Positions 39,222-41,564 of a stretch of DNA of 62,794 nt are shown here, in pieces (position 1 is the stretch's first letter; every line of letters starts with the position of its first letter). Source of the DNA: Candidatus Zixiibacteriota bacterium (GTDB lineage: Bacteria; JAAXHH01). The stretch spans positions 1-62,794 of the forward strand of contig VGJU01000001.1 of the NCBI GenBank assembly GCA_016867335.1, given 5' to 3'. The position numbers were made by a program, and so were the translations under genes. Under the pieces are notes generated by a model. It had not been told where the DNA came from. It ran no database searches and worked only from the letters and a program-made list of their open reading frames with translations.

Positions 39222-39241
39222 TCCTCTTGGCACTGTGCAAG

Positions 39242-39273
39242 CAAGACCGGGACGCGCCGAGTGCCCGGTCTTG
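39242..39273. terminator. 10-bp perfect hairpin between convergent genes
   Basis: CAAGACCGGG - 12-nt loop - CCCGGTCTTG. No U-tract on either side. Confidence 0.4.
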
Positions 39274-39294
39274 TGAGATGCATGGAAGCAGACC

Positions 39295-40285
39295 TCAATA
39301 CTCCTGTTCAAACTTCGGATGCACCCACAGGAACTCTTGCCGCTTGTTCGGAACGCGAACAAGGCCACCGAAGCTCGGATCCTCCTCCTTCAGCCACGCG
39401 TGCAACTGCCGAAAGACCCCCCCCTGCGCCCGGACCGCATCGCCGCGTTCCAGGTCCGGCGCGTCGCTGCGGCCCAGCCTCGCTCGCAAAAGTCAGAAGG
39501 GCGTCCCACGCGGCCGTTGCGTTCGCGACAGGATCCGGATCGGTTGACTTGAGGGCGAGCAGCGTCTTGACGTGCGCCTCGGTCTGGCGCGTGGAAGTAT
39601 GGAGGTCGAGGCTCAGGACGTGGAGCACACGCAGAAAAGGCCACAGGTCTTTGGCAGTGACGTGCGTTTCTTCTAGTGCGCTGACGATCTTGCAGAGCTC
39701 GTTGCACAGATGGACAGACTTCTTCGAGATAAATCCGTCGAGAGACAGCCATCTTTCGAACTCCTCGCCATTGGCCGCGCCTCTGGCGCAGTCGAGCAAC
39801 CCGACAAAATTCTCGAGGAGCGTGTTCGTGCCGCGCAGCGTCACGAGGACAAAGCTGTCGTGCTGGGGATTGAAAGGGTCGGCCTCCTTGAAATCCTTCC
39901 AGAAGTCGCCAATGGCCTTCTTGCATTCGTCGTCGGCGGCACTGATGGTGAAACTGCGTTTCACCTGCCCGACGAGCCGCGCAGTCGCCGCGGCTGCGCG
40001 CGTGCAGACGACGAGGACGTCGTCCGTATTGAAGCCGAGATGCTCGGTCTGGAAATGGACTTCGGTGACGCCGGTATCGGTGAGGATCGGCGGGATGCTG
40101 CGGACGAGCAGCTGCGCTAGCCAGTACGCCGCGACGTGTTGCTCGAAGAACACGCCCTCGCCGCCTGTGGAGATCGGACTTGAAACTCGTTTCTGGCTTG
40201 GGCTATCCATGCCATCCACCAAATGTTCCACTGTTTCGATGACGACCTCATGCGAGTAGTTGCACGGCCCGTCCGATGGTTCCAC
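39295..40285 (-). pseudogene. PD-(D/E)xK nuclease-like (Cap4/DUF4297- or Mrr-like head) protein, frameshifted
   Basis: Carries GGEGVFFEQHVAAYWLAQLL, EVHFQTE, DDVLVV and LVGQVKRS. The frame is lost near 39480-39495. The tail continues in another frame (..RGDAVRAQGGVFRQLHAWLKEEDPSFGGLVRVPNKRQEFLWVHPKFEQEY*). Confidence 0.5.
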
Positions 40286-40913
40286 GGACCACGAGTAGCA
40301 AGAACGCTTGATGTCTCATTGGCATGGTGGTGCTCCTACTGGGAGTCCGGTATTGTCCTATAGCGGGTCATCAAAGGACGACTGCCATGTGCGTTCGATG
40401 CCGCATAACTTCTTATTGAACGGAAGACTCAACTCGGTATAAATAGCCAAAAAGAGATGATTAAACGCGTTGCTCCGTAGACCCTGCCGATACTCCGACG
40501 CCCGGAGCAACACACCCCGTCTACCGCTCTGTACCCATGTCGCACTAGCCACCCCCTTTGAACGGGTTTAACCTACCCCCAAATGCAGTTTGACGCTTTA
40601 ACGCGAGATAAACCTCCCTGCCGGATAGGTTGGTTAGGTTGAATCGACACGGAGCAGCCTTTGATTGTTCCCTGCAGAGGGATTAGAGGGAAAGACCATG
40701 TTTCTGTCTAATCTTTCCGCGCAGGACGATTGGATGGAATACGCTCGCCACATGCCATACCGCGCGCCTTACGCCGACTAGGTGTGGTAAGTCCGGCTCG
40801 AACCCGTCACAGCGTACACTGCCGCAAACAGACTGCGTTCGCCTTACCGATGGGTAAGCCTGCCGCGGTGTTTCGCCGAAACAAAAATCATCTTATCTGT
40901 AAAAGGAAGGATT

Positions 40914-41147
40914 ATGCCCATAAATAAACATTATTCGGATCAAAATGGCAACCAGTATTGTACCGCACGCCCCCCGCGTCTGCCCGGCCAAGTGCAAATC
41001 ACCATACGCACCAAACATTACACCTACCGTACGGAAGAAACCTATGTCCCCCCTCCTCGAAAACGGTTACGCCCCCCGCGCCTGCCCGGTCATACAAGCG
41101 TCAAAACCACGCAGATTTACACCTACGTGCTCAACCGGGGGTGGTGA
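40914..41147 (+). pseudogene. integron-integrase (IntI-type tyrosine recombinase) relic lacking the catalytic core
   Basis: A 77-codon ORF joins IRTKHYTYRTEETYV (N-terminal HYSxRTE motif) directly to [20 protein letters not shown] (C-terminal LLGH..TTxIYTHVLNRGG motif). AAGGAAGG SD is retained. Confidence 0.65.
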
Positions 41148-41254
41148 AAAAGGAAAGGCTCCAGGGTAGATTAGGTACGACCACCTTTACAATGAACGTA
41201 CCCTTCCCCCAAGGAGCCTTTCGATCAAAAGGGCATGGATGTTTTCCCAACAAG

Positions 41255-41560
41255 ATGGAAACCGTGTCGGTAGAGAAAGGGGAAGAGACGGCTTGGTTTC
41301 TTTCCGATCAGGATACGCGGATCGTGCTTATCCAGGCGCTTCTTTCATTGGGTCTTGCGGCGGTTTCCGACATCCTTGCTCAGGAGGTCTGCTCGCTCTG
41401 TGGGGCGCGTCACAACCGCAAGGGGGAAGATCGGAGCCATCGGCGCTGTGGGGCGCAGACCGGCTCGGTGTATCTGGAGGAACAAAAGGTCCGGGTGAGC
41501 GTGCCGCGCGTTTGGGATGCGCGGGCAAAGAAGGAGCGCTCACTCTTGGGGCAACTAACC
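41255..41560 (+). mobile_element. N-terminal fragment (~100 aa) of an IS256/Mutator-like transposase
   Basis: METVSVEKGEE..LIQALLSLGLAAVSDILAQEVCSLCGARHNRKG..GSVYLEEQKVRVSVPRVWD. Similarity stops where the convergent ThDP-enzyme gene ends. No DDE core is present. Confidence 0.5.
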
Positions 41561-41564
41561 TTTT

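Follow-up and report, generated by a model that had tools for sequence, protein, structure and literature searches.

Probable remnant of a chromosomal integron amid truncated genes in a Candidatus Zixiibacteriota contig

The 2.3-kb stretch at positions 39222-41564 of a 62,794-nt window of DNA from Candidatus Zixiibacteriota bacterium (contig VGJU01000001.1) contains a 77-codon open reading frame (ORF) that carries both ends of an integron integrase gene, intI. The stretch is most probably what is left of a classical chromosomal integron that no longer functions and in which intI points away from the cassette side. It is set amid truncated genes: part of an Avs-type defence gene to its left and a fragment resembling IS256/Mutator transposases to its right. 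Two intact housekeeping genes enclose this mosaic of truncated genes of mobile and defence origin. The site has no cassettes left and contains nothing that could recombine unaided; it documents in detail a form of genomic decay that is ordinary and already known. An initial annotation, made from the letters alone, had proposed a dead chromosomal integron or island, and the integrase relic and the platform-like DNA upstream of it agree with that proposal, but a cassette array was not found.

Identity and breakage of the integrase relic

The 77-codon ORF occupies 40914-41147 on the plus strand. Its best family was the integron integrase model TIGR02249 (E = 1.8e-6, profile positions 286-304), and its best match in the PDB was VchIntIA (2a3v, IntI4), residues 263-309. 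The relic was also compared by tblastn with full-length IntI proteins from the database, which themselves score 429-464 bits with TIGR02249 (curated cut-off 265). Residues 9-40 of these bona fide IntIs aligned to 40965-41048 (E 5e-5 to 6e-4) and residues ~297-320 to 41082-41141. Because TIGR02249, 2a3v and the tblastn alignments to both parts agree, the relic can be assigned from its sequence to the IntI type rather than the Xer type, with ~250 internal codons missing. The initial annotation had described N- and C-terminal IntI signatures without the catalytic core, as these matches bear out. At 27.5 bits the relic falls far under the TIGR02249 cut-off, and so it is not a full-length member of the family.

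The 5' part of the gene (codons 1-45, MPINK…ARPPRLPGQVQITIRTKHYTYRTEETYV) lies at 40914-41048, where weak matches to PF13495 and NF011946 were found at the correct N-terminal profile positions. It is followed by a deletion junction (41049-41092) and by the 3' part, which ends in a tryptophan and a stop codon (41082-41147); all are on the plus strand. Of the catalytic residues R-K-H-R-H-Y, the H and Y region alone survives (LPGH…IYTYV), and the 3' part, though it retains the catalytic-Tyr motif, stops ~12 codons short of the IntI end. Copies of the same allele, diverged by ~10%, were obtained from Logan contigs of other runs from the same lakes, and two of them, X9 and X10, were rebuilt from their listed differences. 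These variants lengthen the IntI match, including the motif GMARSSLDD. The additional domain specific to IntI (~…KYP.A…W.WQ.VFP…, between patches II and III) is present in full-length database matches such as P0173 and lies within the region deleted from the window and from X9/X10.

In X9 and X10 the N-terminal frame reads …ARPPRLPGQVRIARAKQYAYRTEETYV (…YRTEETYV) and the IntI C part continues in the +1 frame; X9 has one further 1-nt deletion. As the two parts lie in different frames in both variants, the original event was a deletion, out of frame, by which IntI ~aa 40 (…RTEETYV) became joined to ~aa 285. The deletion took box I, the catalytic R-K-H-R residues and the IntI-specific domain. It is old, because the allele is found ~10% diverged and in other contexts within the same lake community.

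The two IntI ends in the window are not fused straight to one another, as had been supposed; an out-of-frame remnant of the IntI motif LLENGY (41053-41070, read in the window as 'PPPRKRL') and a short copied segment lie between them. This segment, 41069-41092, is a 24-nt copy of 40967-40990 (direct repeat D1, 22/24 identical), and the copied source encodes the IntI N-terminal 'RPPRLPGQ'. The copy stands in place of 'DIRTVQELL' and leaves the window 10 nt shorter, which brings the C-terminal motif into frame. Thus it was by accident that a later patch of 24 nt, taken from the 5' end of the gene itself, restored the frame and made the 77-codon ORF. The patch and its target have ACG in common at one end and CTGC(C/T)CGGCCA at the other, and short-patch conversion or a template switch is therefore a plausible origin. 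The window departs from both community variants at 41138-41140, with the loss of the last IntI codons. A tandem duplication with a 102-nt unit was also considered; similarity outside the 24-nt repeat was marginal, with 11 of 500 shuffled sequences scoring equally, and this candidate was rejected.

The upstream platform and the search for cassettes

The segment 40406-40990 recurs at ~92% identity in an unrelated ENA contig (L006) and in two JGI contigs (L008 and L009), with different flanks. Its non-coding part, which extends to the intI start codon, comprises 508 bp (40406-40913) and was found in at least three other contexts. A run of 72 nt that spans the Shine-Dalgarno sequence and ATG of intI (40892-40963) is invariant between the window and L006, and L008 differs from it at three positions. 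A hairpin of ~15 bp (40679-40715), directly followed by TCTTTCC, is conserved in the platform. Variants pair the change 40685 A>G with the compensatory change 40709 T>C and also repair the 40688/40706 mismatch; this hairpin, which lies upstream of intI, may act as a terminator or as a structural element in RNA or DNA.

The left edge of the segment, at 40406, is exact to the nucleotide in three independent contexts, with divergence directly beyond it. Read on the minus strand, the junctions are …AAGAAG|TTATGC in the window, …AAGAAG|TTAGAC in contigs of the L006 type and …AAGAAG|TTAGAC in those of the X1/X9 type. The L006 and X1/X9 flanks are unlike each other immediately after GAC, and each begins a different promoterless ORF, with a Shine-Dalgarno sequence and an ATG within ~20 nt. 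The true attC sites of contig L019 likewise have GTTAGAC as their R' core. Because the junction is exact, the flanks differ, two of them begin with Shine-Dalgarno and ATG, and the core recurs in the L019 attCs, 40406-40913 is rather likely to be an integron platform running from attI to the intI start codon. By the same comparison 40403-40409 (GTTATGC on the minus strand) would be the attI core, joined to different first inserts and with a predicted crossover between 40409 and 40408.

Sites of the attC type were sought with a heuristic (R''…R' complementarity, a GTTRRRY core and a stable fold) and with a covariance model, R1, which was trained on six attCs and is hence narrow. As a control, the heuristic detected four textbook attCs in L019 and one in L018, and an attC-like site in L008 at relaxed thresholds. 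At 42-62 bits and with the native loops, R1 returned most of the sites on which it was trained, those of 96 nt and 136 nt only partly; it recovered the attCs of L019 and L008, and the L018 site only partly. The site in L008 (3236-3308; GTCTAAC…GTTGGGC, 73 nt, 42 bits with R1) lies just upstream of an ORF for a 388-aa membrane protein.

Several observations weigh against an integron at this site. The heuristic gave one weak candidate in 39222-41564, which is the background density, and no attC in the 62.8-kb window, and the best R1 match scored 10.9 bits in the whole window (E ~2) and 8.7 bits in the region (E ~8). The attI assignment is based on three junctions and a 7-nt motif, and the window core GTTATGC has one mismatch to the consensus. 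No sigma-70-like promoter was found in the platform, and the attI-to-intI spacing of 508 bp is longer than that of class 1 integrons. Outside the platform, the left-hand fragment at 39222-39457 had no Pfam, NCBIfam or PADLOC match and no tblastn match in plasmids, and the assignment of the right-hand fragment to IS256, from sequence similarity, is marginal. Synteny is uninformative for the ancestral state of the site, as the nearest GTDB representatives, identified by the right-hand neighbour gene, have different neighbours.

Since no attC was detected in the region or in the window, no cassette is demonstrable. Neither a cassette array nor a CALIN (the IntegronFinder term for attC sites without an integrase) appears to be present in the window. 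The initial annotation had suggested a covariance search for attC and had named the absence of attC, together with a Xer-type relic, as the outcome that would count against its proposal; the attC half of that outcome was observed, with the heuristic and with R1. Two local candidates were examined and rejected. One (40460-40572) is complementary at six of seven positions and occurs at background density. The other, an attC-like hairpin at 39400-39522, is of a kind found at chance density; it spans the truncation point of the Avs-type gene, and the first half of it belongs to the conserved coding sequence of Avs.

An alternative is that the ~590-bp block 40406-40990 is not a platform but a non-autonomous mobile element beside or inside the relic, such as a miniature inverted-repeat transposable element (MITE), a fragment of an insertion sequence (IS) or a group II intron without an ORF. 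The block is multicopy: the short-read contigs of the window organism all break within 40393-40934, and in run X3 the block is covered 2-7 times as deeply as its flanks. Both of its flanks differ in L006, L008 and L009, as those of a mobile element would. However, the block has neither terminal inverted repeats nor a target-site duplication, its left end fits the integron core motif, and it has no conserved ORF and no match to an intron or other RNA family in Rfam. In addition, IntI homology in the window continues across the right 'edge' at 40990, and this edge is therefore a breakpoint in another lineage rather than the terminus of an element. The mobile-element explanation is consequently improbable.

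More specific versions of it were also rejected. In the case of a group II intron, GTGCG motifs are present close to either edge, but neither an intron nor domain V/VI was matched in Rfam, even at E <= 5. For a large structured non-coding RNA, no Rfam family was matched and one local hairpin with one compensatory pair was seen. The block was likewise rejected as a cassette in either orientation, its right edge not being G|TT and its 3' end having no attC. Platform copies were not found among viral contigs.

Beyond the codons shared with the window, the other copies of the platform are rearranged. In L006 and L008, intI codons 1-26 run into a second, convergent intI 5' fragment (aa 1-75) with a MITE-like insert of ~165 nt. 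In L008 this second fragment (MAGRNYQSIPILEVVRRILHMKHYSDRTEEAYLFWIKR … FILFHNKRHPRDMGTREIQAFLCHLATQ) lies at 311-682 on the minus strand, convergent with the platform intI start. The insert that splits it has imperfect inverted-repeat ends (GTGAAGTTCCGCGCAGC … GCTGCGGGGATTGCAC), and an SNase-family nuclease gene (669-1529) ends at the start of the fragment. In L009 (31-569), intI codons 1-26 and a further 19 nt are followed directly by the N-terminal part of a DUF1156/HmaB methylase gene in inverted orientation (PADLOC E ~1e-23), upstream of which is the C-terminus of an ORF without a Pfam match. Additional rearranged copies, in runs X1-X3, X6, X7, X9, X11 and X12, have loose ends at positions corresponding to 40589 and 40806 of the window. 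One copy breaks after 40589 into the palindromic AACGACAGGGACGACAGCTATCCCTGTCGC, and one starts only at 40806, after TACCCATCTTGGTGGTTCCGCCTCTTCACT. Loose ends at 41103-41140 show the 3' end of a full-length cognate IntI from the community.

Truncated intI genes in other contexts

With the relic as query, phmmer was run exhaustively against 1.84 billion representative proteins and gave 66 matches at E < 1e-3. By our own count, 47 of the 63 non-self matches, which come from diverse lineages, are shorter than 200 aa and yet have both IntI ends, and ~23 of these mini-forms are ORFs of 66-135 aa in which the N and C parts were matched in one stretch; as HMMER favours short targets matched in a single stretch, this enrichment is apparent and cannot be claimed. 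The junctions of the mini-forms are heterogeneous and often fall at apparent microhomologies, e.g., …|IRTVQ and RTE|QELLGH.

In contig L019 (2672-7343), a 94-aa mini-intI is followed by short ORFs on the same strand, separated by textbook attCs (GTCTAAC…GTTAGAC). In L018 (6001-7847), a 90-aa mini-intI is also followed by short ORFs on the same strand, with one strong attC-like site. A mini-intI thus stands beside a true attC array in L019 at least and probably in L018, and both layouts resemble decayed 'inverted intI' integrons. In L017 (386-1768), a 90-aa mini-intI is followed 160 nt on by a full-length (316 aa) tyrosine recombinase, not of the IntI type, on the same strand.

Neutral decay is the economical reading of the mini-intI forms. 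It is doubtful, though conceivable, that alleles with both gene ends represent a recurrent and long-lived state of integrons rather than random debris. The deletion allele described here has lasted through ~10% divergence and occurs in no fewer than three genomic contexts. Such persistence could be due to cis-acting elements at the gene ends (such as Pc/PintI or attI-side sites) by which the platform stays usable in trans by another IntI, or to a small functional peptide. If this were true, the orphan attI of the window would still be a docking site, and one that captured an Avs-type defence gene.

A related explanation is that the 77-aa mini-IntI itself is a maintained small gene, for instance a regulator or a dominant-negative partner of full-length IntI. 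The 47 short database matches with both IntI ends would fit such a gene, as would the persistence of the allele through ~10% divergence. The same is true of the ratio of non-synonymous to synonymous change (pN/pS), which is 0.35 over 44 N-terminal codons between the window and X10 (six synonymous and seven non-synonymous changes); this value is not significant (hand binomial estimate ~0.06), and transitions inflate the synonymous count. However, X9 and X10 have their N and C parts in separate frames, with an extra 1-nt deletion in X9. The frame in the window was restored only by the 24-nt patch, the database junctions are heterogeneous, and the excess of short matches is subject to the HMMER bias noted above. 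A maintained small gene is therefore very unlikely, and the 77-codon ORF is better regarded as the product of decay.

The relic could in principle derive from a generic tyrosine recombinase (Xer, or the integrase of a phage or of an integrative and conjugative element) belonging to an island near a tRNA gene. A tRNA-Arg(CCT) gene (36233-36308, plus strand) does lie 3 kb upstream, and the motif LLGH…IYTHV is common to all tyrosine recombinases. Xer models, however, matched the ORF at 13-15 bits (E 0.009-0.05) against 27.5 bits for TIGR02249, and so the Xer-type relic named in the initial annotation was not what was found. The 'VLNRG' tail and the 'LLDQVR..IR..HYS.RTE..Y' N-terminus are IntI-specific matches, and X9/X10 extend the IntI match further. 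With this evidence, an origin from a generic recombinase is highly improbable.

Least probable of all is an assembly chimera at a repeat: the short-read contigs break inside the platform, but unitigs of independent runs, with zero mismatches and carrying window-specific single-nucleotide polymorphisms, tile the whole of it (40250-40505, 40459-40653, 40519-40739, 40709-40859, 40792-41011 and 40934-41700), which argues that the assembly is not chimeric, and contigs L003-L005 independently confirm the relic.

Neighbouring fragments and known systems

To the left of the platform, the minus strand carries the N-terminal 251 aa of an Avs-type STAND NTPase gene (39458-40210), corresponding to a Cap4-type nuclease domain. 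The nuclease-like ORF that includes it has 325 codons, and tblastn detected homology to Avs-type proteins over aa 1-251 only (40210->39458). The ORF has 126 homologues, the longer of which carry nSTAND1, nSTAND3 or AAA_16 domains. The best homologue, P0001 (88% identity), matches Avs4 in PADLOC (E = 1.5e-16). An AlphaFold2 (AF2) model of the 251-aa domain had a pLDDT (predicted local distance difference test) of 85.2, and the top folds in Foldseek were LmuA, Cap4 and the nuclease domain of Avs3. The identity to P0001 and the Cap4-type fold establish the N-terminal effector of the Avs family; no Pfam NTPase match was found in the window fragment, which therefore lacks the STAND NTPase and C-terminal sensor that define the family. 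The ORF is thus an Avs-type gene cut before its NTPase domain, rather than one that is merely frameshifted.

Other members of this Avs-like family have irregular structures too. P0001, in contig L007, ends in sequence that looks out of frame, with an overlapping 438-aa ORF. In L021 (6081-14693 of a 1.9-Mb contig) the homologue P0038 (490 aa) has DDE_Tnp_1/DUF772 transposase genes as its flanks and is followed by two separate ORFs, one of 363 aa and one of 481 aa. The family may be split or often frameshifted.

The DNA between the Avs-type fragment and the platform (40211-40405, minus strand) is the 5' region of the Avs-like gene and is specific to this context: it aligns with the DNA upstream of the homologous gene in L007, with similarity fading near 40385-40405, and is unlike the flanks of the other platform copies. 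A 64-codon ORF (40358-40552) straddles the boundary of the platform. Profile searches gave no family match for it, and variant copies have a 1-nt indel at 40448; it is regarded as spurious. The initial annotation had seen two leftward ORFs in the orientation of cassettes. The nuclease-like ORF is real, but it is a truncated Avs gene and not a cassette ORF; the 64-codon ORF could not be upheld as one.

On the far side of the Avs truncation, 39222-39457 contains an orphan 3' gene fragment on the minus strand (ORF 39295-39489, …LHAWLKEEDPSFGGLVRVPNKRQEFLWVHPKFEQEY*). It has no similarity to the DNA downstream of the Avs-like homologues in L007 and L021. A G+C-rich hairpin (~39241-39275), read from the sequence, lies between it and the convergent left neighbour, an intact Amidohydro_2 gene (37923-39221, plus strand).

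To the right of the relic, 41148-41564 (plus strand) contains the upstream region and ~100 N-terminal codons of an IS256/Mutator-like gene, with homology over ~41288-41548. Profile matches were weak (PF00872, E = 0.094; NF033543, E = 0.14) and a word-index protein search returned nothing. In tblastn against plasmids the annotated top matches were all IS256-family/mutator transposases (E 1e-3 to 1e-2, 33-39% identity). A resemblance to an IS256/Mutator-like transposase of ~100 aa, as first described, was therefore recovered, but it is marginal, and the homology does not end exactly at the 3' end of the neighbouring gene: it stops at ~41548, 17 nt short of the stop codon at 41565.

That neighbour, an intact gene for a thiamine diphosphate (ThDP) enzyme, lies at 41565-43307 on the minus strand, so that the site is between the 3' ends of an amidohydrolase gene and a ThDP-enzyme gene, as initially described. 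The nearest GTDB representatives of the ThDP enzyme are Latescibacterota metagenome-assembled genomes (69-71% aa identity), in which the other neighbouring genes differ. The contig derives from lake-water metagenomes, with identical pieces in one JGI sample and several SRA runs.

The AT-richness seen earlier at 40.3-41.2 kb was reproduced in the GC profile: 40300-41200 has 52.3% GC against a window mean of 57.6% (standard deviation 2.3% over 900-nt windows) and ranks in the lowest 1.3% of 900-nt windows. The whole of 39222-41564, at 57.2%, is average for the window. Other lowest-GC 900-nt windows of the contig are at ~5000-5400 and ~47650-47750 (minimum 50.7%), and 36850-38200, between the tRNA-Arg gene and the relic, is also rather GC-poor (52-55%). 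The stop end of a PhyH-like ORF (36308-37003, minus strand) abuts the tRNA-Arg gene.

A sequence of events can be proposed for the site. The conserved 508 bp would be the platform, comprising attI and promoters, and its sharp left end (minus strand G|TTRRRY) would be the attI crossover, at which an active IntI once joined different DNA in each lineage. The partner in the window would be the Avs-type gene, perhaps joined via a secondary site, GTTATGC being one base off the consensus, and later truncated to its Cap4-like nuclease domain. As the sequence shows, the integrase gene lost ~250 internal codons out of frame, later gained the 24-nt self-patch, and lost its end where the IS256-like piece begins; that piece is itself cut after ~100 codons, at the ThDP gene.

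Two cautions for annotation follow: a 77-aa ORF with IntI motifs is not to be annotated as an integrase, and an integron scar alone is no sign of a cassette reservoir. The shared platform suggests that an integron family once circulated, or still does, in an uncultured lake-water lineage. Its copies adjoin fragments of defence genes, namely the Avs-type nuclease in the window and HmaB in L009, and the SNase-like gene in L008. This proximity agrees with the overlap between integrons and defence islands that is currently recognized, but in the window only wreckage remains.

The components of the site can be compared with known systems. The ~90 N-terminal aa of the right-hand stub resemble the IS256 family, but the E-values are marginal, a DDE domain is lacking and no inverted repeats were identified, so the stub does not qualify as a member. 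The N-terminal fold of the left-hand fragment is that of Avs3 (8dgc), Cap4 and LmuA, and its intact homologues have nSTAND or Avs4-like NTPase domains; the window fragment, in contrast, retains the nuclease domain only and, without NTPase and sensor, cannot act as an Avs protein.

In the 5'-conserved segment of class 1 integrons (intI1-Pc-attI1), intI is likewise divergent from the cassettes and the platform ends at G|TTRRRY, with variable content beyond. An A-rich run precedes the core in both, AAGAAG|TTAGAC here and AACAAAG|TTAGGC in attI1. Unlike the class 1 segment, to which it has no sequence similarity outside the core, the platform described here has a core-to-intI spacer of 508 bp. CALINs are also a degenerate integron state, but of the opposite kind: they keep attC sites without an integrase, whereas this site keeps a platform and an integrase scar without attC.

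The closest parallel is with chromosomal integrons whose intI is inactivated. About one third of intI genes are pseudogenes, including genes with major deletions (Nemergut et al. 2008, PMC2426708). The site described here differs from such integrons (PMC2426708) in that only ~65 of ~320 codons are left, attC sites and cassettes are absent, and a 24-nt self-patch recreates an ORF. It has in common with them an intI broken by a major deletion, the retention of DNA on the attI side and an association with IS elements.

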